DNA of 64,000 bases from a bacterium (Candidatus Blackallbacteria) CG13_big_fil_rev_8_21_14_2_50_49_14 (GTDB lineage Bacteria > Cyanobacteriota > Sericytochromatia > UBA7694), in contig PFGG01000035.1 in assembly GCA_002783405.1 (NCBI GenBank), positions 113,615-177,614 on the forward strand. Reading direction: 5' to 3'. Below the pieces are notes generated by a model. It did not search any database. It was not told the DNA's origin and worked only from the letters and a program-made list of their open reading frames with translations. Position numbers and translations under genes: made by a program. Below are positions 5 through 53,790 of the stretch, piece by piece (position 1 is the stretch's first letter; each line of letters begins with the position of its first letter).

Positions 5-739
5 ATGCTGAACAATACCCGCCAGAGCATCAGCAATATCAACGGGCTGACCCGCCAATGGCAGGATTTTACCAAAGACCTGCAAGGCCTGACCCGTAAA
101 TTTGAAGGCATTACCGACGATGTCAAAACCATCACAGGCGATGTGCTGGAGATCAGTCATGATCCTGAGATCAAAAAGAATATCCGCACCGTAGCCAAAA
201 ATGCGACCCGCCTGACCAATGCCATCTTTGATCTGACCGACCCCCAAACACAAACCAACCAACTGGATCTGAATTTCAGGGCCGAAGCCCTGGGCGCCAT
301 GCGTTTAACCCAAGATTTTAAAGCCGTCCCCGGAGCTGTCGGCAACTTCAATGTCTTTGGGGATCTGGGACTGGGGGGACCGGTTTCATACTTCCGTGTC
401 GGTCTGGATGAAATTGGTGATGGCAACCTGATCAACCTGCAGGCCGGGAGCAAAATCGATGACAAAAGCCTGGTCCGCTTTGGTCTGGTGCGTGGCAAAA
501 TTGGTGCAGGCGCAGATTTTAATATGAAGCTCCTCGACCAACCCTTAACCCTGAGTGGTGAATTGTATGATATCAACTCACCGCGAATGCGCTTGGGCCT
601 TTTACAGAATATCTGGCAGGATTATGGTCTTTCGCTCTATTGGGATAACCAATTCGTGCGTGGCATCAATGAATTCAATCTGGGCTTCCGCTGGCAACCC
701 CGCACCACCAAACAAGAACCTGCTCATCCCCCCCGTTAG
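5..739 (+). CDS. Hypothetical protein, C-terminal fragment (gene starts upstream of window); coiled-coil-like N-part then beta-rich tail ending ...GFRWQP, possibly envelope-associated
   Basis: The ORF is open at the window edge. It is followed 10 nt later by the next gene and the hypF block on the same strand. No confident family match from sequence alone. Confidence 0.4.
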   Translation: MLNNTRQSISNINGLTRQWQDFTKDLQGLTRKFEGITDDVKTITGDVLEISHDPEIKKNIRTVAKNATRLTNAIFDLTDPQTQTNQLDLNFRAEALGAMRLTQDFKAVPGAVGNFNVFGDLGLGGPVSYFRVGLDEIGDGNLINLQAGSKIDDKSLVRFGLVRGKIGAGADFNMKLLDQPLTLSGELYDINSPRMRLGLLQNIWQDYGLSLYWDNQFVRGINEFNLGFRWQPRTTKQEPAHPPR

Positions 740-749
740 AGGTAAGGCC

Positions 750-1301
750 ATGCCCAAGAAAAAGAAAACACATACCCCCTTGGAGGCCCTGCAAGCCCCC
801 TTGAATTTGGTGGGCTTTGAAACTTTTCTTTTGCCCAAAAGCTCTGAAACCCCCTATAGTCAGTTGCTGGTGGCCCTGACCCCTGAACCCAGTGAAACTG
901 AGTCTTCTGCTTGCTCTATTCTGCAAATTTTTTATACCAAAGATGTGATTGAAAGCCAGGAATCTCAAGTTGAAAGCGGGCTTTCGGTTTTGCAGTTCCT
1001 CTGTACCCTGCCCGACCCGCTCAGTGAGGCCTTGCTGCCTGAGGCATGGCGACTCTGCACCTTTTTCTCACAGCTGATGCCCATGGGCGGATTTCAGATC
1101 ACCCCAGAGAACAGAATCTACTATCGCTATTGCCATATGCACACCGATCCTCAACTCAAGCCCGAACTTCTGGTCGAAATTGTTGAGCTGATCAGTCTCT
1201 TCCTTACCTGTTTTGAGCACACGCAGCAGCAACTGGGCAAAATCCCTCTTTCGGAGCTTCAGCTGAAGGCCCAGACCGAACTGCTTTCCAGTGCGGTTTA
1301 G
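750..1301 (+). CDS. Hypothetical protein (183 aa)
   Basis: ATG at 750 is preceded by the ribosome-binding site aggtaagg. The gene sits between the upstream ORF and hypF on the same strand. The track ORF 555..1301 is an over-extension that overlaps the previous gene. Confidence 0.5.
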   Translation: MPKKKKTHTPLEALQAPLNLVGFETFLLPKSSETPYSQLLVALTPEPSETESSACSILQIFYTKDVIESQESQVESGLSVLQFLCTLPDPLSEALLPEAWRLCTFFSQLMPMGGFQITPENRIYYRYCHMHTDPQLKPELLVEIVELISLFLTCFEHTQQQLGKIPLSELQLKAQTELLSSAV

Positions 1302-1309
1302 CCTCGCAA

Positions 1310-3616
1310 ATGCCGCTACAAAGACAGCGGATCGAACTCCGGGGTCTGGTCCAGGGCTTGGGCTTTCGCCCTTTTGTTTACCGTTTGGCGCAAGAGCATG
1401 GATTGGCAGGCTGGGTGCTCAACCGCAGCGAAGGCGTTTTGATTGAAGCCGAAGGCCCAAGTTCTGTTTTGGCGAGTTTTATTGAGGCCTTAAACAGCCA
1501 GCGCCCTCCGCTGTCTGTCTTGACAGAAATCAGCACAGAGCTTCTGCCCTGTCTGGGCGAAACACATTTTCAGATTTTGCCTAGCCCCACGAACAGCACA
1601 GAAACAGAAGCCTGGATTTTGCCTGATCTTGCCACTTGTGCAGCCTGCGTGCAAGATCTCTTTGAAGCTGGCAACCGGCGTTTTCGCTACCCTTTTACCA
1701 ACTGTACCTATTGTGGCCCACGTTATACGATTATTCAGAGTTTGCCCTATGACCGCCCACGCACCAGCATGCAAAGCTTTGCCATGTGCCCGGACTGCGA
1801 AGCCGAATACCGCGATCCCGGCGACCGCCGTTTTCACGCCCAACCCATTGCCTGCCCCAGTTGTGGCCCCCAATTATCCCTCTGGAACCCCCTGGGAGAG
1901 GTTATAGCCGAACGGGAAGCTGCTCTGCAGGCCAGTGAAAAAGCTCTGCAGGCAGGACAAATTTTAGCCTTAAAAGGCCTGGGAGGGTTTCAACTGCTGG
2001 TAGATGCCCGCAATGCTGAAGCCGTGGCCCGATTGCGTACCGCCAAACAGCGCGAAGCCAAGCCCCTGGCCCTGATGATGCAAGACCTGATTCAGGTCAA
2101 AGCCTATTGCCAGGTTTCAGCTGAAGAAGCCGCACTGCTCACCGGCCCCCAAGCCCCAATCGTGCTCCTGGAGCGTCTGAAGAAACAAAACCTGGCCCCC
2201 AATCTGACCCAAACCCTCAATCCCCGCTTGGGCATTATGTTGCCCACCACGCCCCTTCACCATTTGCTTTTAAAGGATTTAGGCTTTCCCTTGGTCGCCA
2301 CCAGTGGCAATCTCAGCGATGAACCCCTGTGCACAGAGGAGCAGGAGGCCCTGGTGCGTTTACAGGCTATTGCCGATCTGTTTCTGGTGCACAACCGCCC
2401 GATTTTACGCCCTGTCGATGATTCTGTGGTACACGTGATTGCGGGCCAACCCACCCAATTGCGCCGGGCACGGGGCTATGCTCCCCTGCCCTTGGCTGTT
2501 CCCGCCATTCAAGCTCCCCTGCTGGCCCTGGGAGGTCATTTAAAAAATACCCTGGCCCTGAGCCGCAAGGGCCAGGTTTTTCTCAGCCAGCACCTGGGAG
2601 ATCTCGACAGCCCCTCAAGCCAAAACCAATACAGGCACCACCTGCACACCCTGCCCAAGCTGCTGGGTATTGAGCCTGAAGCCTTGGCCTGTGACACCCA
2701 TCCTGATTATTTCTCCAGCCAGCAGGCAGAGCGGATCGCTCTGCCCCGAATTCAAGTACAACACCATTTGGCACATGTTCAAGCCGTGATGGCCGAACAC
2801 GGCTTAAACGCCCCTTTGCTGGGCATGGCTTGGGACGGTTTGGGCCTGGGAACCGATCAGACCCTCTGGGGAGGCGAAGCGCTTGAACTTTTGCCCACGG
2901 GCTGGCAACGCAAGGCCTGGTTGCGCCCCTTTGATTTCGCAGGGGGGGAAAAAGCCCTGCGCAAACCCGCTTATATCGCCCTGGGGCTTTTGCACAGCCT
3001 GTGGGGAGAAGAGATCTGGGAGAGATCAGAACTGGCCCCGCTTCAGGCCCTGAAGACCTCTGAACGCAAGCTGCTGAAACAGGCCCTGGCCTCGCCAGAG
3101 CTCTGCCAAACCACCTCCAGTATCGGACGTCTCTTCGATGCGCTGGCCAGCCTGCTCGATCTCCGCCAAAGCTGTTCTTTTGAGGGAGAGGCTGCGATTG
3201 AACTCGAGTTTTTAGCCCAAAGCTGGTCAGGTTCCGCAGAGCCCTGGCCCATCCCCCTACAGTTCAGTAAAGACGGTTGGATCGCAAATCCTGAGCCCCT
3301 GCTCATTGCCCTGCTTGCAGATTTGCAGTTAAACCTGCCCAAACCCCTTTTGGCAGCGCGCTTTCACGCCTCTTTGGTTCAGCTTCTGCTCAACCTCGCT
3401 CAAAATAGCGGCTTGGAAACGGTCGTACTCAGCGGCGGTTGTTTTCAAAACCGGCTTTTGCTGACCCAAGCGATTCAAATACTTCAAAGAGCAGGATTCA
3501 AGGTATACTGGCCCCAACAGGTTCCGGCCAATGATGGCAGTCTGGCGCTGGGACAAATCCTGGCGCTCCATACTAAAAGGAAGGAAACAGCCCATGTGTC
3601 TGGCCATTCCCGGTGA
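1310..3616 (+). CDS. hypF: [NiFe]-hydrogenase maturation carbamoyltransferase HypF
   Basis: Acylphosphatase-like N-terminus (VQGLGFRPFVYRLA). Two CxxC...CxxC zinc-finger pairs (CAAC, CTYCGPRY, CPDC, CPSCGP). YrdC-like and Kae1-like domains follow. Length is 768 aa. Confidence 0.9.
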   Translation: MPLQRQRIELRGLVQGLGFRPFVYRLAQEHGLAGWVLNRSEGVLIEAEGPSSVLASFIEALNSQRPPLSVLTEISTELLPCLGETHFQILPSPTNSTETEAWILPDLATCAACVQDLFEAGNRRFRYPFTNCTYCGPRYTIIQSLPYDRPRTSMQSFAMCPDCEAEYRDPGDRRFHAQPIACPSCGPQLSLWNPLGEVIAEREAALQASEKALQAGQILALKGLGGFQLLVDARNAEAVARLRTAKQREAKPLALMMQDLIQVKAYCQVSAEEAALLTGPQAPIVLLERLKKQNLAPNLTQTLNPRLGIMLPTTPLHHLLLKDLGFPLVATSGNLSDEPLCTEEQEALVRLQAIADLFLVHNRPILRPVDDSVVHVIAGQPTQLRRARGYAPLPLAVPAIQAPLLALGGHLKNTLALSRKGQVFLSQHLGDLDSPSSQNQYRHHLHTLPKLLGIEPEALACDTHPDYFSSQQAERIALPRIQVQHHLAHVQAVMAEHGLNAPLLGMAWDGLGLGTDQTLWGGEALELLPTGWQRKAWLRPFDFAGGEKALRKPAYIALGLLHSLWGEEIWERSELAPLQALKTSERKLLKQALASPELCQTTSSIGRLFDALASLLDLRQSCSFEGEAAIELEFLAQSWSGSAEPWPIPLQFSKDGWIANPEPLLIALLADLQLNLPKPLLAARFHASLVQLLLNLAQNSGLETVVLSGGCFQNRLLLTQAIQILQRAGFKVYWPQQVPANDGSLALGQILALHTKRKETAHVSGHSR

Positions 3617-3845
3617 GATTCTTGAAATTCTCGATCCAGAGGATCTTTTACGCCCCGCCCGCGTAGCCTTTGGCAGCATGCGCAAACAGGTTTCACTGGC
3701 CTATGTGCCCGAAGCCCAAATCGGAGATTTTGTGCTGGTACACGTGGGCTTTGCCCTGACCGTACTCGACGCCGCTGAAGCAGAACGCACCCTGACAGCC
3801 CTGACAGAATTGGGCGCGCTGGAGGAAAATGAAATACCAGACTGA
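3594..3845 (+). CDS. hypC: Hydrogenase assembly chaperone HypC/HupF
   Basis: The protein starts MCLAIPGEI, the essential N-terminal Cys2 motif of HypC, and is about 83 aa. Ribosome-binding site aaaaggaagg lies upstream. It overlaps the hypF 3' end. The track start at 3531 is an upstream over-extension. Confidence 0.85.
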
Positions 3846-4914
3846 ATACCGCCAGCCCGAAGCGATCCAAGCGCTGGCAGAAGAGATTCACAAAACAGTG
3901 ACCCGCCCCTGGACCCTGATGGAAGTCTGTGGAGGACAAACCCATGCCATCGTCAAATATGGGCTGGATCAACTGCTTCCATCGGGCGTTGAACTGCTGC
4001 ATGGCCCTGGTTGCCCGGTTTGCGTGACCCCCCTGACCATTCTCGATCAAGCCCAGGCCCTGGCACGAAACCCAAAAGTCGTCCTCTGTTCCTATGGGGA
4101 TATGCTACGCGTTCCTGGCAGCCAGACCGATCTGCTCAGCGTAAGAGCCCAAGGCGGAGACGTGCGCAACGTGTATTCTCCGCTTGAAGCGGTTGAGCTG
4201 GCCCAGGCCCACCCTGAACGTGAGGTGGTTTTTTTAGCGGTGGGCTTTGAAACCACCGTGCCGGGCCACGCCCTGGCCCTGGCGCGAGCCGAACAACTGG
4301 GTTTGAAGAACTTTTCGCTGCTGGTTTCTCATGTTTGCGTCCCTCCTGCCCTGGAGGCCATTCTTTCTGCCGAGGGCAACCGTGTGCAGGGATTTCTCGC
4401 CGCAGGCCATGTCTGCACTATCATGGGCACAGCAGAATATCTGCCGATTGTTGAAAAATACAAGGTTCCGATTGTGATTACAGGTTTTGAACCCGTGGAT
4501 ATTCTCGCAGGTATCCTGGCCTGTCTGCAAGCCTTAGAAAGCGCCCGTCCCCAATTGCTCAATAGCTACAGCCGGGTGGTGCGTGCAGAAGGCAATCCCG
4601 TTGCCCAAAAACAGGTAGATCAGTTCTTTGAACGGGTCGATCGGGCCTGGCGGGGCATTGGCGTCTTGCCTGCCAGTGGCCTGGGGCTACGTGAGATCTG
4701 GCAGGGTTTCGACGCGCGCCAGCGCTTTGGTTTGGGGCCGGACACCGCCGAAACCCCCGGCGAATGCCGCAGTGGCGAGGTCTTACAAGGGCGGCTCAAG
4801 CCCCCGGAATGCCCGGCATTTGGTAAAGCCTGCACACCAGAACGGCCCTTGGGGGCTCCGATGGTCTCCTCAGAAGGAGCATGTGCAGCCTGGTACCGTT
4901 ACCGAGGCACCTGA
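3829..4914 (+). CDS. hypD: Hydrogenase maturation factor HypD
   Basis: Contains the motifs [19 protein letters not shown] and a C-terminal CPAFGKAC...GAC cysteine cluster typical of HypD. It overlaps hypC by 17 nt. Confidence 0.9.
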
Positions 4915-7082
4915 AAAACCGTTTCAAACGCGGGTTTTAACTGGCTCCAAAGCGGAAAAGACTTTTGATCCAGCCCCTTTGAAGTCCAAGTGACAAGTAA
5001 GGGCACACGCAGTTTTTGCAACTGTGAAGGGTAAAACACCACAGGCTCATCCAAGATAAAGCCATAACAATCGACTTTGGCTTGCCCCTGAGAAAGTGTC
5101 AGATCAGCAGGACGCGAGCCTGGATCTGCACCCAATTTCAATAAATCAGGTTTACACAAGATTAAAGCTGTGGGTTGATGAAAGGCTGGCAAAAGGGTAT
5201 AAGCTCCGCCCGGAGCAAAAATATCAGCAAAATAAGGATTTTGCGGCATGCTGTTTGCCGTGATCTGTTGCCCCTGAACAGCGGGCGTCTGGCGCGCCAA
5301 ATCAAAACTTAAGGCCTTTTCTAAAACAGGATGAACAGGTGAAAGAACACGCCACCACCCTTGCTTGTTCTGGCTGACGCGCAATCCTGGAACCAATACC
5401 CCCAAAGAAAGAACAGACAAGTTTTGATTCAAAAGACTTAAATCGGCTTTTGTTTTTAGATTTGTTATTTCCCGGGCCTGGCTTAAAACCTGTCTGAATT
5501 GCTCTTTCCCTGCCGGATAGGCCCCCTGCATTATTTCTCGATAAGGATTATCTGATGCCTGGTGCAAATAAACCGTGTGATACCAAAAATAGTCATAAGG
5601 TGCGCCATCAAATCCATAGGCCGAATTATTAAGATAAGAAGCATCCAACGCTCGCCCCTGCTGAGAAATACTGTTCCAAGCTAAAATAAAGGCAAAGACA
5701 TATCCCAAGACTCTAAATTTTGCGAATTCAAACTTTTCAAGTGCAGAAAATACATAACCCAAACAGGCCATCGCAACCCAAATTCCCCAGAATTCATACC
5801 AAACCGTATCTCTTAAAAGAGCGCGATTGCCAAATAAAAGCAAAGGAAAAAGACAAAAGAGCGAAACTCCCATCATGGCAAGAGGAAAATAATCCATCTG
5901 CTCACGCTGCTTACTCCACAGCTCCCAGCCCAAGAAAGCAAAGCCAACGCCACAAATTACAAGATAATCTGCACGGGTACTAAAAATAAAGCGCAGCGTA
6001 TCTACGATACTGCCCGTTCCCGCTGAGCTGATATCCATCCAGATGCTGGCACGCAAAAGCCCCTGTAAGTAATGCCATCCCAGATTAAAATCAGGAAAGA
6101 AACAAAACAAGGGAAAAACAAAAGCAAGACTCAATCCCAATAAAAATCCAGGATACGCAGCGACGATGTTTTGCCAGCGATGACTCAAGCGCTGAAAAAG
6201 AAAGAGAAAAGGAAGCGGCAAAAACACCAAGCCCAGCCAGATCACTGGCAGTTTTAAACTGCCCGGCTGAGAGAAATTTGCAACCGGCATGGTTCGTCCG
6301 GGCAGAGCAGTGCTGAACCAAGCTGGCCAGGCCAAGATAAAAAACAAGAGCAAACCTGGCAGCAGTTGCAAACCAATCGTTTGAGGCTTAGGACTTTTCT
6401 CAGGTGTTTCTACTTCCAGCATTTGCCATATTTGAAAAGCCAAAACCACAGGCATTGCAATGATCGCCTGAACTTTGGTCATCACCGCCAAACTGCTAAA
6501 AACCCCGCACAAGAGCAGAGCAGAAAGACGAAACCGAGGGGCTTGGCGAATCATCAAGGCCGAAAGTAGAGCCAGGGCCAGCAAAAAAAGGCTGAAGATT
6601 TCCGAACGCAGCGTCATAGCCATATGCAAAACGCCACCTTCTAGGCCCAAGGCAAGACTCGCACTCAACCACAGCCAGGGCATATGTGGAAACAAAACAA
6701 CCAGCAAAACCACAGCCGTTAAAACAAATAGCCAGACAAGCACCGCTTGAATTTTACGCAAAAACAAAGTCAGTTCAGCCAATCCCAGCGCAGGATCTGC
6801 TGCATTCTTCAAGTCTTCCAGGCTGGCCACTGAAATCAGTTGATGGGCACGGGCCATGCGGGTCGCCGAGGCCAAAATAGCCACCATCGCAAATTTAGGG
6901 TGGTCCAAATGCGCTGGGGTTTTATGACTGTTCAGTAAAAGCGTATCCTGTGCAGTTGAAGCATCCATATCCCAATAATAATCAAAGGGAAAAACCTGTG
7001 AAAGATGCAAATAGAAAGGAAGCAAACCAGAGCAGACTAAAAGAGTTAAAATCAGCAAAACATGCCGACTGTTTTTACGCAT
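4899..7082 (-). CDS. Polytopic membrane glycosyltransferase with a GT-C fold (ArnT/PMT-like) and a ~250-aa C-terminal soluble domain
   Basis: More than 10 predicted transmembrane segments. An acidic first-loop motif FDYYWDMD sits after TM1, the expected catalytic-loop position in GT-C enzymes. It is the last gene of the operon containing the DPM1-like GT2 and the DegT aminotransferase. Confidence 0.5.
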
Positions 7083-7085
7083 GTT

Positions 7086-8378
7086 TTAAAATTTCCCCAA
7101 AAATTGATCAAGTGTATCCTGAAAATAAGCAAGCGCTGAATCGGTAAGATCATGGTGAATGCCCACCATAAAGCCCCGATCATGCACATAATCAGCACCC
7201 GGCATCGCTGATTGGCCCTGACGAAATGCGAATTTATGCACCACTGGCTGGCGCAAAAAATTACCTGTAATCAAAGGACGGGTAAAAATTTGGGCAGATT
7301 GTAAAGCCCTTTGCAAGTCTTTGCGCTCAAAGGGAGCCCCTGGTTTCACCAGAATGGCCAGACCAAAAGCGGAAGAGGCATGCCCTGGCAAGGCCTGCTG
7401 AACCGCCAGCCAATCTCCCCAACGGTTTAAGATATGCGCCTGCAAAATTGCTAAAATATTCTGACGCCGAAGAATAAACGCATCCAGCCTTCCCAACTGA
7501 CTCAAACCTATCGCAGCGTGCATTTCAGTAGGCCGCAGATTATAGCCAGTTTCAACGAAAAGCCAGCCCCCTGTAAGTTCAGGAAAGCGCTCAATCCAGT
7601 CCTGCTGATCACTGCGGCCACGAATCCAACCATGTGCCCGCTGACTGATCAACAGATCCTGCCAATCTTGGGGTTTGCGCATACACACCATTCCCCCCTC
7701 AATCGTGGTCATATGGTGGGAGAGAAAAAAGCTGAAGCTGGAAAGGTCTCCAAAATTCCCGACCTTCACACCTTCAATCGTGGCACCATGGGCTTCACAG
7801 CAATCTTCAAGCACCCATAAATCATGCTTGCGGGCCAAAGCCATCAACTCAGGCATGGGGCAAGGGTTTCCCAAAACATGTACAGCCACCAGGGCACGGG
7901 TTTGGGGAGTAATCGCTGCTTCGACCTGCTCAAGACTCAGGTTCAGAGTCACGGGATCACAGTCCACAAAAACGGGAATGGCCCCCATCTGAACCACTGG
8001 AAAAACAGATGTTGACCAGCACACAGCGGGAACAATCACTTCATCACCCGGCTTCAAGGCGGGCTGAGTCTGTTGTGAAGCAAAAGCAGACAAAGCCAGA
8101 AGATTGGCTGAGGAGCCTGAATTGACCATCAAAGAGCCAGCCGATTGATTCCAATGGCTCCAGGCCTGCTCAAATTCTGCCACACGTTGCCCCATGCTGA
8201 CCTGACCGCTAAGTAAAACAGCCACAGCGGCCTGCAAGTCTTCTGGCTCAAAAAGGGTACGCATCAGTTCAAAGGGCTGCTGGGGAGGGGCCTGCATCAA
8301 TTGGCGCTGGTAGTTGCCTACCCACTCCAGAATCTGATCGTGCTGGGTTTCCAGATCACGCATGGGAAGCTCACTCAT
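7086..8378 (-). CDS. DegT/DnrJ/EryC1/StrS-family PLP-dependent sugar aminotransferase
   Basis: Length and motifs match sugar 4-aminotransferases of the ArnB/Per type (GDEVIVPA..., SFF..H...EGG lysine region). Its start overlaps the upstream GT2 gene by 4 nt. Confidence 0.85.
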   Translation of the reverse strand: MSELPMRDLETQHDQILEWVGNYQRQLMQAPPQQPFELMRTLFEPEDLQAAVAVLLSGQVSMGQRVAEFEQAWSHWNQSAGSLMVNSGSSANLLALSAFASQQTQPALKPGDEVIVPAVCWSTSVFPVVQMGAIPVFVDCDPVTLNLSLEQVEAAITPQTRALVAVHVLGNPCPMPELMALARKHDLWVLEDCCEAHGATIEGVKVGNFGDLSSFSFFLSHHMTTIEGGMVCMRKPQDWQDLLISQRAHGWIRGRSDQQDWIERFPELTGGWLFVETGYNLRPTEMHAAIGLSQLGRLDAFILRRQNILAILQAHILNRWGDWLAVQQALPGHASSAFGLAILVKPGAPFERKDLQRALQSAQIFTRPLITGNFLRQPVVHKFAFRQGQSAMPGADYVHDRGFMVGIHHDLTDSALAYFQDTLDQFLGKF

Positions 8379-9073
8379 TGCGGGCCGGCAGGCAGTTTGA
8401 GTTCACGAAAATACAACTTCAGAAAGGCAATCCCCGTTTGAATACTGGGAGACCCCTTTTCAGGTCCAATCCGGTTGCCTTCACGGGTTGGAAACTCAGC
8501 AATTTTCAAACCGTATTTAAGCGCCCGAATCGTGCTCTGATACTCTATCGTATATCCCGGCCCATCAGGCGCAAGGCGTTCCCAGGCCCGACGCGTAATC
8601 GCACGATAGCCATTGATACTGTCTGTCACAAAGGGATGTTGATGACGGTTAAAACTCATATTCGCCATTAAATTAAAGGCGTTATTTGCCCATTTCCGCC
8701 ATTTGAAAAATTGGTCGTCTTCTTCATTGCGTGCCCCTTCGACCATGCGCGTGCCAATCACAATATCATGACCGGCTTCCAGCAAAGGTCTGAACTTCGT
8801 CAAATCTCGCGGGTCTTCGTTGCCATCGGGGCTAAAAAAAATCAAAGCATCGGCATCTGTCGAGTCAAAGGCTATCCGAAAAGCTTCGCCCCGTCCTTTT
8901 GAAACCTGCTCACGTACAGGAAAAGCGTGTTGACGATAGAATTCAAGCGTTCCATCTTTGGAACCCCCATCCACGGCAAAATACTCATCGACACTGCCCA
9001 AAGGCAAATCCTTGAAAATAGCCTCCAAACCCGGCAATTCATCAAGGGTCAATAAAACCAAAGCCAATTTCAT
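8375..9073 (-). CDS. GT2 polyprenyl-phosphate glycosyltransferase (DPM1/ArnC-like, soluble form)
   Basis: Contains DGGSKDGT and a DxD-type GT2 core in about 232 aa. ATG at 9073 follows the ribosome-binding site aaggaaaaa and is coupled (ATGA) to the upstream reductase stop. Confidence 0.75.
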   Translation of the reverse strand: MKLALVLLTLDELPGLEAIFKDLPLGSVDEYFAVDGGSKDGTLEFYRQHAFPVREQVSKGRGEAFRIAFDSTDADALIFFSPDGNEDPRDLTKFRPLLEAGHDIVIGTRMVEGARNEEDDQFFKWRKWANNAFNLMANMSFNRHQHPFVTDSINGYRAITRRAWERLAPDGPGYTIEYQSTIRALKYGLKIAEFPTREGNRIGPEKGSPSIQTGIAFLKLYFRELKLPAGPQ

Positions 9074-10062
9074 ATGCTTTTTCCTTTGTGCTCTCGGTAC
9101 CACTGTAAGGTTTTCAAGAGCCCCTCGCGCAAAGGAGTTTCTGTCTGAAAACCTAATTTTTCAAGGGCTTTGCGGTTATCACAATGCCGACGGGGTTGCC
9201 CATTGGGCTTGCTGGTATCAAAGATCAACTCCAAAGAGCGGCCTGAAAGCTCCACCAAAAGAGAGGCCAGATCACGAATGGTAATTTCTTCGTCTGCTCC
9301 CAAATTAAAGGCCTCAGGCCCCTGGGCTTTTTCAGCCACCGTCAAAAGCCCATTGGCAAAATCTTCAACATAGAGAAAAGAACGGGAAGCACTGCCATCT
9401 CCCCAGACCACCAGGGGGTTAATTCCCTGCTCAATTTTATGAACCAAACCCGCAATCACATGGCTGCTTTGCGGATCAAAATCATCGCGCGGCCCATAGG
9501 CATTGAAGGGGCGGGCCACGACAATATCCATGCCAAACTCTTCGACATAGGCCTGGGCCATATATTCCTGCATACGCTTAGACCACCCATAACCCGCATT
9601 GGTGGGTTCAGGTGTTTCTTTAAAGCCTTCCTCTTCTGGGGTGGGGATACTGCTGTTTCGTGGATACACACAAGCTGAACTGGTCACAAGAAAACGTCTG
9701 ACTTCTTCTTGACGTGCGGCCTCCAGCGTACTGAGAAAAGCACGCATATTGTCGCGAAAAAGCGAGCCAGGATGAAGACGATTGAATTCAATGCCCCCAA
9801 CGCGGGCTGCCAAATGCAAAACCAGCTCCTGGCCCTGGCAACAGGCACGCGCAAAAGTTTCATCTTCAAGATTGCCCACCCGGGTATCAATCTCGTTTTT
9901 CACATTTTCCAGAAAACGGAAGCGATTCTCTTCAAGACTCGAGGTCGTCGTGACATGGGCCCCGGCAGCGACAAGCTTTTCAACTGTAAAGCTGCCAATA
10001 AAGCCATTTCCGCCGGTTACCAAGACCTTGCGGTTGTGCCAGAAATCAACGCCGATTGGCAT
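9070..10062 (-). CDS. NAD-dependent epimerase/reductase, GDP-L-fucose synthase (Fcl)-like
   Basis: Rossmann motif [12 protein letters not shown]. Fcl-like motifs [37 protein letters not shown] and KPNGQPRR. It overlaps the 3' end of gmd. The alternative GTG start at 10080 is also possible. Confidence 0.7.
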
Positions 10063-11125
10063 AATCAAAATCCTGATCACGGTAACCCGAAGGAAGAGAG
10101 CGAAACGCCTTGTCTTGACTGGGTTCTAAATTATAATCCAAAGGGTTCAGACCTACCGACTCAAGATCGGCCGCCAACATCAGACGCGCCAATTCTTTCA
10201 TACGGGTTTTGGCCTCCCAGCCCAATTTGGCTTTGGCTTTTGAAGCATCGCCAATCAAGAGGTCAACCTCTTTGGGACGAAAATAACGGGGATCGATACT
10301 GATAATTTCTTCCTGATTGAGGTTTACCTGTTCGCAGCAATAGTCCAAAAACTCTTTGACGGAGTGGGTTTCTCCGGTGGCCAAGACAAAATCCTCAGGT
10401 TGCTCCTGTTGCATCATCAACCACATGCCTTCTACGTATTCCCGCGCATAGCCCCAATCGCGTTTGGCTTCTAAATTGCCCAAATATATTTTGCTTTGGT
10501 GCCCTGCCAGGATAGCCGCCAGACCCATGGTGATTTTTCGCGTCACAAAGGTTTCACCCCGGCGTGGCGATTCATGATTAAACAAAATGCCATTCACCGC
10601 AAACAACTGGTGGGATTCACGCGCATTCATGGTCAACCAATAGGCCATCACTTTGGCACAGGCATAAGGTGAGCAGGGATAAAAAGGGGTCGTTTCACTC
10701 TGAGGAATAGCCCGCACATGCCCGTACATTTCACTGGAAGAAGCCTGGTAAAAACGGGCATCTGGTTTTTCTGTCAAAACAGCATCCAAAAGACGCTGAG
10801 TGCCCTGCCCAACCACATCAACGGTATAAGAAGGCGCATCAAATGAAACCCGCACATGGGATTGGGCTCCCAAATTATAGACTTCATCGGGCTGAATCTG
10901 GCGAATAAGCTGGTTTAAACGACTGGCATCACATAAATCGCCATAATGTAAAAAAAGATTATTCTTCTGTTGGTGAGGGTCTGAAAAAATACGCAAGATA
11001 CGCTGGGTACTGAAGGTGCTTGACCAACGGATCATGCCATGCACAATATATCCCTTGGCCAATAATAATTCAGCGAGATAAGAACCATCTTGACCGGTTA
11101 TGCCGGTAATAAAAGCCGTTTTCAA
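10046..11125 (-). CDS. gmd: GDP-mannose 4,6-dehydratase
   Basis: N-terminus [25 protein letters not shown] plus Gmd-specific motifs and 359 aa length. The start is TTG with an upstream aagg. Confidence 0.9.
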
Positions 11126-11293
11126 GTCTTTTAACCTTATAAAGAAAAATACGGGTTAAGGCCGCATTTTTTCTTTTTACTTTTGATCACAAATAAGCTC
11201 TGGTCAGTATAAGCTCCCTCGCAAGTACAGTCAATGAGGGTGGGTCTGGGTTCTGACGATTCAAAACTACAGCCAAAACCCAGACCAGGGGCT

Positions 11294-11302
11294 GCTGTAT
11301 AA
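11294..11302 (+). promoter_or_regulatory. Candidate extended -10 promoter element (tgTATAAT) for the GT4-GT2/MMPL operon, inside the divergent 210-bp intergenic region
   Basis: The sequence ctgTATAATac lies about 33 nt upstream of the ATG at 11336. An 8-bp inverted repeat tctgggtt...aacccaga (about 11242-11285) sits just upstream. Confidence 0.3.
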
Positions 11303-11335
11303 TACAGAAAAAGCAATTTTCTGGCAGGAATATCC

Positions 11336-13468
11336 ATGCGCATCGCCTTTCTTTCCCGCATTTCACGTGCCTTTAATGGGGAGACCGTCTATCATGAGCC
11401 CCTCGGAGGCACCCAAAGCGCAATTGTCTATCTGGCGCGGGAACTTCAAGCCCTGGGCCATGAAGTGCATGTTTTTTGCCAATGCAAAGAAAAAGCGGGT
11501 GTTTTTGAGGGCGTAACCTATCACAACGTACCCGACTTGGCCCGATTTGCCCGCCAGAACCCGCTTGATTTTTTTATTTCCTGTGCCGATGAAAGCGCCC
11601 TGAAACTGGGCATTCCCGCCCGCCACAACCTGTGGTGGTCCCACAATGACTATTGCTTTTTTTGGCATGAAATGCCCGACCTGCGTGCCAAAACAGCTGA
11701 AATTCTCGCCACAAAAGCAGATAAACTGGTCGCCGTCAGTGAATGGCATGCCCAGAAATTATCAGAGGTTCTTCAACTCCCACGCGAACATTTTTGGATC
11801 GCCCGCAATGCGGTGCATGCCCCCTGGTTTGAGCCGACACCCCAACCGGCCAGCCCTCCCCGCCTGATTTATTCCAGTGTTCCCGACCGGGGCTTGGATC
11901 TTCTGCTTGAGTTTTTTCCTGAAATTCAGGCCCAGGTGCCCGAGGTGGAGCTTCACCTTTATTCCAGTTTCACGGTCTGGGGCAAAAGTGTTGAATGGAA
12001 TCAGGCCAAAGCAGGGGCCCTGTATGCCGAAGCCCAAGCCCTGCCAGGTGTATTTTTGCATGACCCACTGCCCCACCCGCAATTGGCAGCAGCCCTGCTG
12101 GAAGGCTCTTTGATGGTCTATCCCAACCATGCTGCCGACCCCATCGACGAAAGTGGTTTTTGGGCTGAAACTTCCTGCATTGCCGCCCTCGAAGCCCAAG
12201 CTGCGGGCTTGCCTGTAATCACCAGCGCACGGGGGGCTTTGCTAGAAACGATTCAGGATCAACAGACGGGATTTGTTTTGCCTGGTGACCCCCACAGTGC
12301 AGCCTACCGTCAGAGCTTTATTGAAAAAACCGTCGCCTTGTTGCGCGACCCTGAAGCCCGGCAGAAATTGAGTACAGCCGCCCGTGCCCGCATTCAGGCT
12401 GAATATACCTGGCAATTGCGGGCCCGTGAATGGGATCAGTTTTTTCAAAGCTTCAGTTCAAGCCGCATGCAAAGCTCTCCCCTGCTCAGCCCTTTTCCTG
12501 CGCCTGAAATTTCAGTGATTATTCCGACCTATAACCGGGCCCGCAATCTCAAAAACTGTCTTGAATCTCTCACCTGGCAAACCTTTAAAGCCTTTGAAGT
12601 GATCATCTGCGATGATGGTTCCAGTGATAGCACCCGCGAAGTGGCCGAAAGTTTTCAGGAACGTCTCAATCTGGCCTATCGCTGGCAGGAAGATTTGGGT
12701 TTTCGTGCGGCTGAAGCCCGCAATCTGGGATTGAAACGTGCCCGCGCCAAACTGCTCGTTTTTCTGGACAGTGATCTGGTCGTGCCCGAAACCTTTCTTG
12801 CTGCACATTGGCAAGCCCACCAAAACTATCGCAATGTGGCTGTCAACAGCTACGTCACCCGCATGCTGGAAGCCGTGGATCAAGATCTGGGCCTTCCTCC
12901 TCAGGACTATATCCCCAAGCACCAGGAAATTCTCAAACCCGACAGCCGTGATCGCTACGAACTCTTCGAGCGGACAGGGCCCGTCGAAGAAACCTATTTC
13001 CTTGACAGCAATGCCCTCTCCATCTGGCGCGAAGATCTGGAAAGAGTCGGCAATTTTGATGGAAATTTTATCGGCTGGGGACACGAAGACACGGAACTGG
13101 GTTACCGCATTGCCCAGTACGGGATGAAGCTGCTGCTGATCAAAGAAGGTGCCACCGCCTACCACCAATACCACAGTGTTTCCGAAAGCAAAGACGAAGA
13201 ACGAGCCGTCAATTGGAAACTACTCACCAGCAAACATGGGATCAACCGCTGGTATCACCCCCTCTGGGAACTGCCGGTTGAAGGGGGGGTGCAACTGGTC
13301 ATAGAAGGTGAAATTACCGCCCAAGACAAAATTTTTTCAGTTTGGTCAGATGCCGCCTGGACACTCAAAACAGGCCACCCGATTCCCTTGGCTGGCCTGC
13401 ACTATCTTGTCAAAATTGAAAACGGAATTCTCAAAGCGATCGAACCCTTCAATGGCAGCCCCGCATGA
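11336..13468 (+). CDS. Bifunctional glycosyltransferase: N-terminal GT4 (GT-B) domain fused to C-terminal GT2 (GT-A) domain
   Basis: The N-terminal half has GT4 features (E..GG, LPVITSARGAL.E). The C-terminal half has the GT2 signature SVIIPTYNRARNLKNCLESL...CDDGSSD...FLDSDL. Length is 710 aa. Confidence 0.8.
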   Translation: MRIAFLSRISRAFNGETVYHEPLGGTQSAIVYLARELQALGHEVHVFCQCKEKAGVFEGVTYHNVPDLARFARQNPLDFFISCADESALKLGIPARHNLWWSHNDYCFFWHEMPDLRAKTAEILATKADKLVAVSEWHAQKLSEVLQLPREHFWIARNAVHAPWFEPTPQPASPPRLIYSSVPDRGLDLLLEFFPEIQAQVPEVELHLYSSFTVWGKSVEWNQAKAGALYAEAQALPGVFLHDPLPHPQLAAALLEGSLMVYPNHAADPIDESGFWAETSCIAALEAQAAGLPVITSARGALLETIQDQQTGFVLPGDPHSAAYRQSFIEKTVALLRDPEARQKLSTAARARIQAEYTWQLRAREWDQFFQSFSSSRMQSSPLLSPFPAPEISVIIPTYNRARNLKNCLESLTWQTFKAFEVIICDDGSSDSTREVAESFQERLNLAYRWQEDLGFRAAEARNLGLKRARAKLLVFLDSDLVVPETFLAAHWQAHQNYRNVAVNSYVTRMLEAVDQDLGLPPQDYIPKHQEILKPDSRDRYELFERTGPVEETYFLDSNALSIWREDLERVGNFDGNFIGWGHEDTELGYRIAQYGMKLLLIKEGATAYHQYHSVSESKDEERAVNWKLLTSKHGINRWYHPLWELPVEGGVQLVIEGEITAQDKIFSVWSDAAWTLKTGHPIPLAGLHYLVKIENGILKAIEPFNGSPA

Positions 13469-15690
13469 ACACTCCCCCCTCTCTTTTGCGCCGGGGACTG
13501 AACGCGCTGGCCCACCATGTGCTGAACCATCCCAAGCGCTGGCTGCTGAGTTGGGTTTTGCTCCTGCTGGTGGCTTTGCCCGGATTTTTAACCGTCAACC
13601 GTTTTTTGGTGGGAGGCAATGGCGGTGTCACAAGCTCACAGGCCCTGCACACCAAAGATTTGCTCGAAGCGCGTTTTGATTTTCCCTATACCAGCAATTA
13701 TCTGCTCGTGATTGAGCATCCCCATCTGACCCTGGAAGCGCCGGCCTACCGTCAGGCCGTTGAAAAAATTGAAAAGGTGCTGCGCAGCCAGGAAGATACA
13801 CGTGCAATTCAAAGCTGGTACCAAAGCCAGGATGAAATGATGCGCAGTGCCGACGGAAAACGCACCTATCTGCTCATCGGGCAGACCGTAGCTGCCAGCC
13901 AGAAACTGGAGCTGCGCACCGGCGAAATCCGGGCAGCCCTTGCTCCCCTGCTCAAAGAACTGCATCAAGAGGCTGGTTTTTCAGCCTATATGACCGGCAT
14001 GAACGCCGTGATCTACGATATCAACAAGGTCACTAGCGCCAGCACTGCTACGGCCGAGAAACAGGTTTTTGGCCTGACCCTCGTGATTCTGCTCTTGGCC
14101 TTTGGTTCGCTGACAGGCGCACTTTTGCCACTTTTGATGGCTGTCGTGGCCATGGTGCTGACCCTGGCAATTGTGGCTGTGATTGCCCAACTCACCATGG
14201 TGTCCAACTATGCCCAGAGTATCTCCTCAATGATCGGTCTGGCCGTCGGCATTGATTACGCTCTTTTGCTGGTCTGGCGTCTGCGTCAGGAACGGGAAAA
14301 GGGTCTGGAACTGAAAGAAGCCCTGCATCAAACCCTGCTGACGGCCGGAAAATCGGTGATCTTTGCAGGGGGCACCTTTCTGATCGGCTTGGGTGGACTC
14401 TTTTTCAGCGGCATTACTGCCCTGTTTTCAATTGGCTTGGGCGGTATTCTGATTGTTGTGGTCAGCGTCGCTGCCAGTTTAACCCTTTTGCCTGCACTGC
14501 TACTCTTACTCGGCCCTTGGCTCGATTTTCCCAAAACCTGGGCCACACGCCTGCAAAACCTGCGTCCTTCGCGCCTCTGGAAACCTCTGGCCTATCACGT
14601 CATGCGCCACCCCTGGGTCTATGGCAGCGCTTCACTGGCAATCGTTCTGGCGATCAGCAGTCCGGCCCTGATGCTACAAATTCGCCAGTTTGACATGCCC
14701 AACCTGCCTGATCGGCTGGAATCCAAACAGGGCTTTGACCGTATGATCCAAATGCAGGTTTCAGGCCAAATGATTCCCCTCTTTCTCGTGCTGGAGACAC
14801 AAAAGCCAAGCCTTCTCAATGCCGAAGACCTGCACCAGCTCAAACGCGTGCATGCCCAGCTCCAGGCCAACCCCTTGATCGAGCGCGTGATCAGCCTGGC
14901 CACCCCCCTGCAGGAACACCCCGATCTAGCCAATCAACTGCCTTTGATCCGTCTGCTGACCCCCAATCTTTTCAATCTTTTGCTCAGTCACGATGAAAAA
15001 TTGACTTTGATTCAGGTGATTCCTAAAAAGCTGGGGGATTTTGACGAAATTGTCAATCTCTGTCGTGATCTGCGCCTGCAACTGGGCCCCGAACTGCTGA
15101 AACAGGGCCTGACCCTGCACACGGGAGGCCCCCCCGCTCTGACCCTCGATTATAACGAAGCCACTTTCAGCCACAGCCCCCAAATTCTGATTGGCGTGGT
15201 CATCGCCACCTGGCTGGTCTTGCTCTTTTCTCTGCGCTCCTGGCTGATTGCCTTCAAGGCCATTCTGCTCAATCTCTGCTCTGTGGCCGTCAGCTATGGT
15301 GTGATCACCCTGATCTTTCAGGAAGGTTTGATTCCAGGGATTCAAACCCAAGCGATTATGGCCTATGTACCCTTGCTGCTATTTTGCCTGATTTTTGGCC
15401 TCTCGATCGATTACGAGGTTTTTCTCATGACCCGTATCCGCGAAGCCTATGAAAGCGGTGAAAGCAATGAAGAAGCCACTGCCACCGGCATTCGCGCCAC
15501 CGGAGATGTGATCACCTATGCAGCCCTGGTCATGGGTCTGGTCTTTGGGGCCTTTACCCAAGTTGAAATCAGCATTATCAAACAATTGGGCTTTGGTCTG
15601 GCCACCGCGATTCTGGTCGATGCCACCCTGATTCGCATGGTACTCGTGCCTGCCTTTATGAAAATTGGCGGGCGCTGGAACTGGCGTTAA
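13465..15690 (+). CDS. MMPL-family (RND superfamily) membrane transporter
   Basis: Two 6-TM bundles separated by large periplasmic loops, typical MMPL topology in 741 aa. ATGA coupling to the upstream glycosyltransferase. Confidence 0.8.
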   Translation: MNTPPSLLRRGLNALAHHVLNHPKRWLLSWVLLLLVALPGFLTVNRFLVGGNGGVTSSQALHTKDLLEARFDFPYTSNYLLVIEHPHLTLEAPAYRQAVEKIEKVLRSQEDTRAIQSWYQSQDEMMRSADGKRTYLLIGQTVAASQKLELRTGEIRAALAPLLKELHQEAGFSAYMTGMNAVIYDINKVTSASTATAEKQVFGLTLVILLLAFGSLTGALLPLLMAVVAMVLTLAIVAVIAQLTMVSNYAQSISSMIGLAVGIDYALLLVWRLRQEREKGLELKEALHQTLLTAGKSVIFAGGTFLIGLGGLFFSGITALFSIGLGGILIVVVSVAASLTLLPALLLLLGPWLDFPKTWATRLQNLRPSRLWKPLAYHVMRHPWVYGSASLAIVLAISSPALMLQIRQFDMPNLPDRLESKQGFDRMIQMQVSGQMIPLFLVLETQKPSLLNAEDLHQLKRVHAQLQANPLIERVISLATPLQEHPDLANQLPLIRLLTPNLFNLLLSHDEKLTLIQVIPKKLGDFDEIVNLCRDLRLQLGPELLKQGLTLHTGGPPALTLDYNEATFSHSPQILIGVVIATWLVLLFSLRSWLIAFKAILLNLCSVAVSYGVITLIFQEGLIPGIQTQAIMAYVPLLLFCLIFGLSIDYEVFLMTRIREAYESGESNEEATATGIRATGDVITYAALVMGLVFGAFTQVEISIIKQLGFGLATAILVDATLIRMVLVPAFMKIGGRWNWR

Positions 15691-15948
15691 AAAAAATCCC
15701 GCCAGGGCAGGCGGGAGAGCAAGACTCGGGGCATCGAGCACGACTTCATCATCTATGAAGGAAACACCTTTAGTATGTCTGTTTTGATTGAAAAGCCACT
15801 GAGCAGCACATGAAGAAAGTCTGAGACTTTCCTGAGAAATTCCTGAGAGCGCTGAAAAATTCAGGCCACAAAGGGCAGCCCCTGCCGACTGACATGCCAA
15901 GGGCCAGAAATGGTAAACTGATACCTGAATTTCCAGATTTTTTGCTGA

Positions 15949-17586
<1,638 letters not shown>

Positions 17587-24070: not shown

Positions 24071-25510
24071 TCAGCCCATCAGCCCCTTGATCCAGTTCAG
24101 GACAAAAACCCCATTGGTCTTAGACACCTTGGGGTCGGCCTTCATTTGCGAAAGGCGTTCCACAAAGACCTGTTTTTCTTCAGGCTTCATATCCCCACGG
24201 CCCTGCCATTCAAAGAAGGTGTCCTGGGCCATCTGGGTCACGGTTTCAGGCGTTACTTCTGTCACTGCGTCTATTTCTTCATTTGAGAAATTGCCCTGGA
24301 TATGGCTCATGGCCGATTCAATATCCTGATCGAGCAGAGGTTTGTCTTTGTCTTTTTCAAGCATTTCAATCTGACGCACCAAGGCCGCCAATTGAATCTT
24401 ATGAATAATGCCTTTATCTGCCAGCATTTTATCGAAAGGCACCACGGTTCCCGCTTTAACATCGGCCTGCAGGAAAGCAAACCCCACAGGTTTGTCTTCG
24501 TGGTTGAGGTTATACGATTTCACCAATTGTTTCTTTTCAATATCTATCTGGGAAATAATCGGCGTAAAAAGCGCGCCCTCGTCGGTATAGGTCATCACCA
24601 TCAGGCTCTTGCGATCTGGGCTGATGGCAATCAGATCACAGGGGTCATCCACTTCGCTGAAGCGTTTGCCGGGCAGCAGAATCGTGCCCTGGTGGCTGTA
24701 ATCTTTAATCGAGAAAATCAAGACAGCCGGTTCCTTGCTGGCATCTGCCAGAACAGCAAAAATCAGGCCCAGTTTATCATCCAGGGTTAAATTCCCCAAA
24801 ATGCCATGCTCGGTATAAATCCGCTCTTTCTGGCGGTTGCTGGGGTTGATCACCAGAATATCCGGGGTATGGTGGTCGGTGATATAAATGGTTTTGGTCT
24901 GTTGTGAATAGGCCACATTGATCGCTTTTTTACTGCCGGGATCGCGCACCTGCAATTGGGCACTGGTCTGGCTGAGCGTAAAATCCGACATAAACAACGT
25001 GCCTGCGGCACGATCGATCAGAAAAATCCCCGTGTTCTGGTGCGGAGGAATAAAGAAATCATAGGGCCCACGCTTCACATCATTGACAGGCACCATCGTA
25101 TTGAGCAGCATATTCATCTGGTAAGCCTGGTTTTTCAGCCAGACATAGCCCCCCTTAAAACTGGGGGTGATTTCTGAATGGCCACGATCCTGTACTCCAG
25201 TAAAAACACCCTTTTCATTGAAGAGTGCGACTTTATTCGAGGCATAGGGTGCCCATTCTCCCTGAAAAGCTGGGGCGGGCATATCAAAAGAAGCCCATTC
25301 ATCCATAGCCTCATTGCCAGCGGGTGCGCTGCGATCCCGCAGCAGGAGACGGCCACTGTTGTGCTCAAGCAGGTAATTGCACTGCAGGGCTTCAATTTTC
25401 ATCAGAATATAGGTCTGAACCGCGATGGCCAGTTGTGAGGCAGAGGCTAAATTCTGCTGAACGGCCAGAGAGCAGAGTTTCTGAACGGATTCGCTTGTTG
25501 TAATTGGCAT
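24071..25510 (-). CDS. Hypothetical protein (479 aa), no recognisable family
   Basis: Long ORF with coding-like composition. No signal peptide and no known motif could be recalled. Confidence 0.5.
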   Translation of the reverse strand: MPITTSESVQKLCSLAVQQNLASASQLAIAVQTYILMKIEALQCNYLLEHNSGRLLLRDRSAPAGNEAMDEWASFDMPAPAFQGEWAPYASNKVALFNEKGVFTGVQDRGHSEITPSFKGGYVWLKNQAYQMNMLLNTMVPVNDVKRGPYDFFIPPHQNTGIFLIDRAAGTLFMSDFTLSQTSAQLQVRDPGSKKAINVAYSQQTKTIYITDHHTPDILVINPSNRQKERIYTEHGILGNLTLDDKLGLIFAVLADASKEPAVLIFSIKDYSHQGTILLPGKRFSEVDDPCDLIAISPDRKSLMVMTYTDEGALFTPIISQIDIEKKQLVKSYNLNHEDKPVGFAFLQADVKAGTVVPFDKMLADKGIIHKIQLAALVRQIEMLEKDKDKPLLDQDIESAMSHIQGNFSNEEIDAVTEVTPETVTQMAQDTFFEWQGRGDMKPEEKQVFVERLSQMKADPKVSKTNGVFVLNWIKGLMG

Positions 25511-32397: not shown

Positions 32398-32399
32398 CG

Positions 32400-42436: not shown

Positions 42437-42558
42437 TGTTTGCCCTCAAATATGCTTTATTGTAGCACAGCCAAATGCTTGGATTTTCAGCGGATCAGCC
42501 CTTGAAAAAGCCTTGTAGAATGCGATACTGAGGATATTGGCAAGAAGGAGTGAAGCGG

Positions 42559-53766: not shown

Positions 53767-53790
53767 ATCTTCACAAGGCTCAAAATAAAA

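Follow-up and report, generated by a model that had tools for sequence, protein, structure and literature searches.

In the Arn system of Escherichia coli and Salmonella (ArnB/C/A/D/T/E/F), which modifies lipid A with 4-amino-4-deoxy-L-arabinose (Ara4N), a single operon combines tailoring of the sugar by a short-chain dehydrogenase/reductase (SDR) and a DegT-fold enzyme, loading by a family 2 glycosyltransferase (GT2), and a polytopic glycosyltransferase of the GT-C fold with a periplasmic domain. In Gtr-type systems (GtrA/GtrB/Gtr, CsbB/GtcA/YfhO, GacI/J/K/L, FlmF2/FlmK and PpgS/Rv3779), a polyprenyl-phosphate GT2 and a variable, fast-evolving GT-C enzyme decorate a finished periplasmic glycan, and the known donors carry Glc, GlcNAc, GalN(Ac), Man, GalA, Ara4N or pentofuranoses. 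The DPM1-PMT pair and the bacterial Ppm1-Pmt pair use a GDP-sugar donor. In the GDP-L-colitose pathway (Gmd, ColD and ColC; E. coli O55/O111 and Yersinia pseudotuberculosis), GDP-colitose goes directly to cytoplasmic glycosyltransferases in O-unit assembly. Here we describe a five-gene operon in a 64-kb stretch of contig PFGG01000035.1 (hereafter, the window) from Candidatus Blackallbacteria, an uncultured relative of cyanobacteria represented by a metagenome bin of the Sericytochromatia. The operon encodes the three enzyme types of the colitose pathway, interleaved with a GT2 of 232 amino acids (aa) that resembles dolichol-phosphate mannose synthase (DPMS), here called GT2s, and a 727-aa GT-C-like membrane protein, MP727. 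From comparisons of sequences and structural models, we consider it somewhat probable that the operon is a self-contained cassette that adds a 3,6-dideoxyhexose to a cell-envelope glycoconjugate outside the cytoplasm by way of a lipid carrier.

The architecture largely agrees with the Arn-like logic proposed for this locus in an earlier, model-generated reading of the DNA (the first-pass annotation). The sugar chemistry proposed there needs revision (see below), and that of the cassette also differs from Arn: Arn uses a UDP-glucuronic acid precursor whereas the cassette uses a GDP-hexose, the DegT-fold enzyme of Arn is a 4-aminotransferase whereas that of the cassette is a predicted 3-dehydratase, and the cassette, unlike Arn, has no formyltransferase, deformylase or ArnE/F genes. 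As in Gtr systems, the GT2 is highly conserved and its GT-C partner divergent, but there is no GtrA-like flippase gene and the GT-C-like protein belongs to no annotated family. Unlike the PMT systems, the cassette is predicted to handle a dideoxy L-hexose rather than mannose, and MP727 lacks MIR domains, has a different C-terminal domain and is not a member of Pfam PMT or PMT_2. Relative to Arn, Gtr, FlmF2/FlmK, PpgS/Rv3779 and DPM1/PMT, the distinguishing elements would be a GDP-derived 3,6-dideoxy sugar, a GT2 clade lacking transmembrane (TM) helices, an unannotated GT-C family, and the absence of a recognizable flippase gene from the window. No paper in the literature that we searched links colitose or any deoxyhexose to an undecaprenyl-phosphate donor or a GT-C enzyme.

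Five co-oriented genes in a compact operon

The five open reading frames (ORFs) are packed on the minus strand at 4899–11125, all in the same orientation and overlapping or nearly so (Table 1). Direct reading of the sequence showed that the SDR gene overlaps gmd by 17 nt if it begins at the ATG, which lies 14 nt before the gmd stop, or by 35 nt if it begins at the upstream GTG. An ATGA overlap is found at the SDR/GT2s junction and again at the junction of GT2s with the DegT-fold gene, and only 3 nt separate the latter from the MP727 gene. Overlapping or 3-nt junctions throughout the operon fit translational coupling, as the first-pass annotation had proposed. Chance ORFs can be excluded given the equivalog score of Gmd, the scores of the SDR, GT2s and DegT-fold proteins, each above the Pfam gathering score, and the 190 relatives of MP727. 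The NCBI hypothetical proteins COW36_01170 and COW36_01160, from the same bin, are identical to MP727 and GT2s, respectively.

Sugar-nucleotide enzymes of the predicted colitose type

The assignment of the first gene as gmd was firm; its product scored 502.6 bits against the TIGR01472 equivalog model (cutoff 415) and 449 bits against PF16363, and, read from the TTG start, its N-terminus fits the Gmd profile from position 1.

The DegT-fold protein (PF01041, 277.7 bits; best NCBIfam model RfbH NF011936, 312 bits) had been taken for an aminotransferase, and GDP-fucose, GDP-rhamnose or, through this enzyme, GDP-perosamine for the product. Among PDB sequences, however, it is closest to ColD (2gms, E = 4.7e-66 over ~380 residues, with modest identity and 40 aa more than ColD) and to the CDP-sugar 3-dehydrase E1 (3bcx, 5.4e-63), with perosamine synthase (1.3e-40) and ArnB (4.4e-33) far behind. 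In the alignment, SFFLSHHMTTIEGG stands opposite SFYSHHIATMEGG of ColD, such that the SHH motif corresponds to S187-H188-H189. The first His of this motif occupies the position of ColD His188, which replaces the Lys that binds pyridoxal 5´-phosphate as a Schiff base and is marked by the deposited ColD mutants H188N and H188K (SNH, SKH, NKH). An identity as an aminotransferase of the Per/ArnB type, perosamine synthase included, was rejected given this His and the ranking of the PDB matches. An E1-type identity, with an Fe-S cluster and a CDP-sugar substrate, was rejected as well: the cluster segment of E1, CYCAPGCDNTC, aligns with the Cys-free gwir..grsdqqdw, and Gmd is present. No gene for an E3 reductase partner was found in the operon by ORF list or Pfam scan. 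With His in place of Lys and no Cys-rich Fe-S segment, the protein is, as judged from its sequence, a ColD-type 3-dehydratase dependent on pyridoxamine 5´-phosphate (PMP).

For the SDR, the best NCBIfam match is GDP-L-fucose synthase (GFS; 195 bits, well under the equivalog cutoff of 500), and the best PDB matches are likewise GDP-fucose synthases (5e-44), in line with the Fcl-like label given earlier. An alignment with E. coli GFS (1bws) shows that the SDR retains the Ser/Cys pair (in SSACVYP), the YxxxK motif and the His of SHVI. In GFS, these residues perform epimerization and reduction. We thus predict an epimerase/reductase of the Fcl/ColC type. The combination of Gmd, ColD and an Fcl paralogue constitutes the known GDP-L-colitose pathway (PMC8987622), and the operon encodes the same three enzyme types with His188 conserved and the Fcl/ColC residues retained. 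The predicted sugar nucleotide is therefore GDP-L-colitose or a similar or stereoisomeric 3,6-dideoxyhexose; with a ColD-type enzyme, a sugar of this type is expected rather than the fucose, rhamnose or perosamine named before.

A different sugar on the same lipid carrier seems to us quite improbable, whether the SDR by itself produces L-fucose or some other 6-deoxyhexose, the DegT-fold enzyme transaminates and so gives a 4-amino sugar, or the 3,6-dideoxyhexose has another stereochemistry. The SDR is nearest to GDP-fucose synthases, yet 195 bits against an Fcl cutoff of 500 is what would be expected of a paralogue such as ColC. Wild-type ColD itself belongs to the aminotransferase fold, but the His for Schiff-base Lys exchange is that of ColD and E1, a Lys there is what distinguishes the engineered H188K variants of ColD, and the similarity to perosamine synthase and ArnB is weaker by more than 20 orders of magnitude. 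A further point for a different sugar comes from two Bdellovibrionota loci described below (L021 and L023), where Gmd, GT2s and MP727 genes occur with no ColD-like gene nearby, as if GT2s may accept other GDP-6-deoxy sugars.

A small GT2 related to polyprenyl-phosphate glycosyltransferases

GT2s matches PF00535 above the cutoff (37.5 bits). Its best NCBIfam models are AglJ (80.7 bits, cutoff 325), a haloarchaeal Dol-P-hexose transferase (38.1, cutoff 375) and mycobacterial PpgS (26.6, cutoff 370), all of them polyprenyl-phosphate glycosyltransferases. The family is strikingly conserved, with 2445 homologue clusters (90% identity) at E ≤ 1e-10, the best 120 of which share 60–74% identity across phyla, and its invariant motifs include VDGGSxDGT, GRGEAF, SPDGNEDP, RKWAN, DxINGxRA, GYTIEYQ and EFPTxE. 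When the family profile was compared with PDB sequences, the seven distinct matches at E ≤ 1e-3 were solely DPMS (1.3e-15, covering 197 of 233 positions), GtrB (8e-6) and ArnC (3e-4). An hhalign comparison with E. coli ArnC gave 97% probability, confined to the generic nucleotide-binding half.

The AlphaFold model of GT2s (pLDDT 92.9) pointed in the same direction. The top Foldseek match was Pyrococcus DPMS (5mlz; E = 8e-13, TM-score 0.77, root-mean-square deviation 3.0 Å), which makes DPMS the closest solved relative by both sequence and structure, followed by ArnC, GpgS, GtrB and mannosylglycerate synthase (MGS); no processive synthase was present among the top 50. These results uphold the earlier description of a DPM1/ArnC-like enzyme as opposed to a processive polysaccharide synthase. 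ArnC has two C-terminal TM helices and GT2s has none. Human DPM1 also lacks a TM segment of its own. The GT2s model contains amphipathic helices at 126–142 and 212–227. Taken together, these data most probably place GT2s among the polyprenyl-phosphate glycosyltransferases, as a separate clade.

The Foldseek neighbors also raise the prospect that GT2s makes a soluble glycoside, for instance a dideoxyhexosyl-glycerate-type solute, in the manner of GpgS (E = 6e-11, TM-score 0.71–0.73) or MGS, and that MP727 is unrelated to it. We regard this as highly improbable: GpgS and MGS are missing from the sequence-profile matches, which contain DPMS, GtrB and ArnC only, the GT2s, ColD-like and MP727 genes are coupled in one operon through an ATGA overlap and a 3-nt spacer, and GT2s stands repeatedly beside polytopic proteins in other genomes.

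A polytopic membrane protein with a predicted GT-C fold

MP727 had no match in Pfam, NCBIfam or PDB sequences, and a word-index search for homologues, with the single sequence and then with a profile, returned only the protein itself. An exhaustive HMMER scan of 1.84 billion representatives detected 190 relatives at E ≤ 1e-3, mostly 680–790 aa long; the family comprises ~190 clusters at 50% identity, and all named members are annotated as "hypothetical protein". Six of 110 relatives gave weak Pfam PMT_2/PMT matches. The family profile matched only noise among PDB sequences (GPCRs and designed proteins).

A confident AlphaFold model (pLDDT 91.2, pTM 0.93, from a 40-sequence alignment) shows 13 TM helices: TM1, then a long loop (28–96) with two short helices, and twelve more helices up to ~487. 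These are followed by a C-terminal alpha/beta domain of ~240 aa (490–727). Given the positively charged N-terminus (MRKNSRH) and the positive-inside rule, this domain is predicted to be extracytoplasmic, which agrees with the ~250-aa periplasmic domain noted in the first-pass annotation. Directly after TM1, the first loop carries the motif [YF]P[YF]xxWDMD; residues W37-D38-M39-D40, D46 and H61 are conserved in >90% of 121 relatives, and P56 in the same loop, E103, R159, E161, G193, K203, Q205, R420 and D425 are further conserved positions.

The top Foldseek matches of this model in the PDB were GT-C enzymes, albeit weakly: ArnT (best by E-value, 0.014), DPY19 and ALG12 (probability 1.00), Pmt4 (probability 0.99 and the best TM-score, 0.55), STT3, EmbA/B/C and ALG3. 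Transporters appeared at a probability of ≤0.2 only. Of the ArnT/PMT-like GT-C assignment made earlier, the predicted GT-C fold stands. Membership of GT83 (ArnT) or GT39 (PMT) was rejected, with no Pfam match and an hhalign probability of 2.3% between the family profile and E. coli ArnT, the aligned stretch lying solely around G...TK. On the strength of the model, we describe MP727 as a predicted GT-C-fold enzyme whose family has so far gone unannotated.

GT2s and MP727 relatives in other genomes

Among 185,579 species genomes, a pattern scan identified 35 loci encoding MP727 relatives, in Sericytochromatia, Planctomycetota, Verrucomicrobiota/Victivallales, Bdellovibrionota, Nitrospirota, Desulfobacterota, Leptospira, Margulisiibacteriota, WWE3 and Proteobacteria. 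At eight of the 35 (L002, L006, L015, L021, L023, L025, L026 and L029), from five phyla, a close GT2s orthologue (225–353 bits) lies directly beside the MP727-family gene, mostly in the same orientation. Their companions include Gmd (5/8), an SDR (6/8) and a DegT-fold protein with the His variant (6/8), the last being ColD-like with the same His in L002, L006, L025 and L026 and more distant in L015 and L029. Copies of the pair with genes for Gmd, a ColD-like enzyme and an SDR alongside recur in Gammaproteobacteria, Planctomycetota, Bdellovibrionota and Leptospira. A contig from a bioreactor (L041) carries the exact five-gene order of the window between unrelated flanks, which indicates that the cassette is an autonomous unit.

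A second sample comprised six GT2s orthologues picked irrespective of MP727. SDR and DegT genes stand beside five of them, and a polytopic membrane protein is encoded within two genes of four; of these membrane proteins, only that of L040 is a detectable MP727 relative. The idea that GT2s is always partnered with the MP727 family was dropped after hhalign detected no similarity to this family in the polytopic neighbors at L037 and L039, and so was a resemblance in a "DHPG" motif matched by eye. Gtr-type systems likewise combine a conserved GT2 with polytopic partners that vary; the link between GT2s and MP727 is frequent, not obligatory.

MP727-family genes also adjoin a fusion of a S-adenosylmethionine (SAM)-dependent methyltransferase and a GT2 (475–793 aa) in eight other loci (Table 1), so that the family seems to have another type of partner, which may be the more common one. 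In the Bdellovibrionota locus L023, Gmd has neither a ColD-like nor an SDR gene upstream of it, a hint that the GT2s/membrane-protein pair can also be supplied with other GDP-6-deoxy sugars.

Several of these loci showed additional features. The Gmd-GT2s-MP727 trio of L023 (4954–7645, minus strand) faces genes for a sugar C-methyltransferase, another GT2s-like protein (112 bits) and a DegT protein. L042 encodes tandem MP727-family paralogues of 761 and 788 aa beside an 840-aa YfhO-like protein (7646–12367), with no sugar-nucleotide genes nearby. In L029 (6408–8306), L038 (5181–7085) and L040 (8855–10768), proteins of 633–637 aa, encoded beside GT2s orthologues and a 311–315-aa SDR, consist of a DegT domain and a C-terminal extension that weakly resembles GT2s/GT2. 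The L029 fusion, the one that was checked, has His in place of the catalytic Lys (AHILTT).

Proposed pathway and points for and against it

The operon would work as follows. Gmd, whose family assignment is clear, would convert GDP-mannose to GDP-4-keto-6-deoxymannose. The ColD-type enzyme, as judged from its active-site His and the lack of an E1-type Fe-S motif, would remove the C3 hydroxyl to give GDP-4-keto-3,6-dideoxymannose, with PMP regenerated from glutamate, and the SDR, with its catalytic Cys, His, Tyr and Lys kept, would epimerize C5 and reduce C4 to give GDP-L-colitose or a close stereoisomer. GT2s, as a peripheral protein, would transfer the sugar to polyprenyl phosphate at the cytoplasmic face, a step suggested by its exclusive likeness to DPMS, GtrB and ArnC and by the coupling of its gene to that of the membrane enzyme. 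The polyprenyl-phosphate sugar would then be moved across the membrane by a putative flippase. Finally, MP727, with its modeled fold, would pass the sugar to an envelope acceptor held by the C-terminal periplasmic domain, the WDMD loop possibly providing the catalytic base or a metal site, and R159, K203 and R420 binding the phosphate. Two successive inverting transfers from GDP-beta-L-colitose would yield a beta-L-colitoside, whereas the L-colitose in known O-antigens is alpha-linked. Candidate acceptors are lipopolysaccharide (LPS) or O-antigen, a protein, or a glycolipid for which the neighboring MMPL protein (see below) would be the exporter. At the gammaproteobacterial locus L006, a ManC gene and a Wzz-like gene lie upstream of the cassette and hint at LPS O-antigen as the acceptor there.

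A number of observations weigh against this pathway. GT2s falls well short of every NCBIfam equivalog cutoff, has in GpgS, an enzyme with a soluble acceptor, a Foldseek neighbor almost as near as ArnC, has no TM helix that might anchor it (maximum hydropathy 1.29), and reads D-G-N at the DxD position, within the family-invariant SPDGNEDP. The Foldseek E-values of MP727 are weak, none reaching 1e-3, and it has no detectable sequence similarity to ArnT. In other genomes, most MP727 relatives partner the methyltransferase-GT2 fusion rather than GT2s, the polytopic neighbors of GT2s at L037 and L039 are unlike the MP727 family, and the L038 orthologue has a Wzy_C protein in place of an MP727-family gene. 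Last, no GtrA-, GtcA- or ArnE/F-like flippase was found in the operon, the 64-kb window or the L041 cassette.

Several of these points would suit an arrangement in which the two halves of the operon act separately, with GT2s as a cytoplasmic colitosyltransferase acting on an Und-PP (undecaprenyl-diphosphate) repeat unit or other cytoplasmic acceptor, and MP727 as an independent envelope enzyme, which could be a GT-C enzyme with a donor of its own or resemble a polymerase or ligase. The genes would then simply share a polysaccharide locus. In the E. coli O55/O111 O-antigens, the addition of colitose is cytoplasmic, GT2s lacks a TM helix and a canonical DxD, some GT2s orthologues have no MP727-family neighbor, and MP727 relatives are often beside a different type of GT2 or none. 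We nevertheless judge this arrangement unlikely, given that all PDB sequence relatives of the GT2s profile are polyprenyl-phosphate glycosyltransferases, that eight of the 35 loci, drawn from distant phyla, have GT2s and MP727 genes adjacent and mostly co-oriented, and that the cassette in the window is compact, with no Wzx, Wzy or initiating transferase found.

Returning to transfer through a lipid carrier, we tentatively propose, with less assurance than for the cassette itself, that GT2s and the MP727 family constitute an undescribed, cross-phylum system for periplasmic dideoxyhexosylation, with the first polyprenyl-phosphate-linked deoxy- or dideoxyhexose donor (e.g. undecaprenyl-phosphate-colitose) and a new GT-C family marked by the motif WDMD...H...TKxQ. 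If this is correct, lipid-phosphate sugar donors would extend to deoxy and dideoxy L-hexoses, an unannotated GT-C family would join the catalogue of envelope-modifying enzymes, and a conserved GT2 clade of Planctomycetota, Bdellovibrionota, Leptospira, Sericytochromatia and others would gain a role. Surface-glycan loci in uncultured diderm phyla could be better annotated, and the five genes might provide a portable glyco-engineering cassette for rare and strongly antigenic 3,6-dideoxy sugars. The implied mechanism extends the established Arn/Gtr logic and does not answer a long-standing question.

Surroundings of the operon and other features of the window

Divergent to the cassette lies a translationally coupled gene pair encoding a GT4-GT2 fusion and an MmpL3/HpnN-like MMPL/RND exporter, both with Pfam and NCBIfam matches, followed by pyrG. 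By its sequence matches, the pair looks like a glycolipid synthesis-export unit and may produce or export the acceptor. It was rejected as a part of the cassette, being absent beside the identical five genes in L041. The opposite flank is occupied by the hydrogenase maturation genes hypF, hypC and hypD (1310–4914, plus strand), which adjoin the cassette; hypD and the MP727 gene overlap by 16 nt at their 3´ ends.

Table 1. Positions of the operon genes, neighboring features and methyltransferase-GT2 fusions (window coordinates unless a locus is named)
Feature	Position	Strand	Remarks
gmd, GDP-mannose 4,6-dehydratase	10046–11125	-	359 aa, TTG start; first operon gene
Fcl/ColC-type SDR, predicted GDP-4-keto-3,6-dideoxymannose 5-epimerase/4-reductase (colitose synthase-like)	9070–10062 or 9070–10080	-	330 aa (ATG) or 336 aa (GTG)
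GT2s, predicted polyprenyl-phosphate : NDP-dideoxyhexose glycosyltransferase	8375–9073	-	232 aa; small, soluble
DegT-fold protein, predicted ColD-type PMP-dependent NDP-4-keto-6-deoxyhexose 3-dehydratase	7086–8378	-	430 aa
MP727, predicted GT-C-fold glycosyltransferase of an unannotated family	4899–7082	-	727 aa; polytopic
Divergent intergenic region	11126–11335	.	sigma-70-like site TTGACT-17-TATACT, minus strand, 11234–11206, ~80 nt upstream of gmd
GT4-GT2 fusion	11336–13468	+	710 aa; divergent to cassette
MMPL/RND lipid exporter, MmpL3/HpnN-like	13465–15690	+	4-nt overlap with GT4-GT2 gene
Methyltransferase-GT2 fusion	L003 10131–11651
Methyltransferase-GT2 fusion	L005 12172–13596
Methyltransferase-GT2 fusion	L013 12840–14393
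Methyltransferase-GT2 fusion	L030 2680–4197
Methyltransferase-GT2 fusion	L031 10744–12219
Methyltransferase-GT2 fusion	L032 8426–9895
Methyltransferase-GT2 fusion	L033 12034–13575
Methyltransferase-GT2 fusion	L035 7521–9899

The sigma-70-like site upstream of gmd is a consensus match alone; the region contains 10 such sites, compared with 6.5 ± 2.6 in shuffled sequences, and promoter and terminator scans gave counts near the shuffled-sequence expectation overall. No Rfam family was detected at 3500–16500, and no riboswitch or other RNA element was found there. Base composition showed no GC anomaly across the cassette.

Elsewhere in the window, long ORFs with no Pfam match lie at 24071–25510 (minus strand, 479 aa), 50045–51979 (minus strand, 644 aa), 5–739 (plus strand, 244 aa) and 555–1301 (plus strand, 248 aa). 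The region 28819–33428 encodes a 1192-aa protein with WD40/beta-propeller repeats and a C-terminal caspase domain (Peptidase_C14), and the gene after it, which is on the other strand, codes for a DUF4384 protein. A 642-aa B12-binding radical SAM protein is encoded at 40521–42449 (minus strand). At 52447–57804 (plus strand), after an RcpC/CpaB-like pilus assembly gene, comes the gene for a probable large surface protein of 1251 aa, which contains He_PIG, PKD-like and lamin-tail domains.

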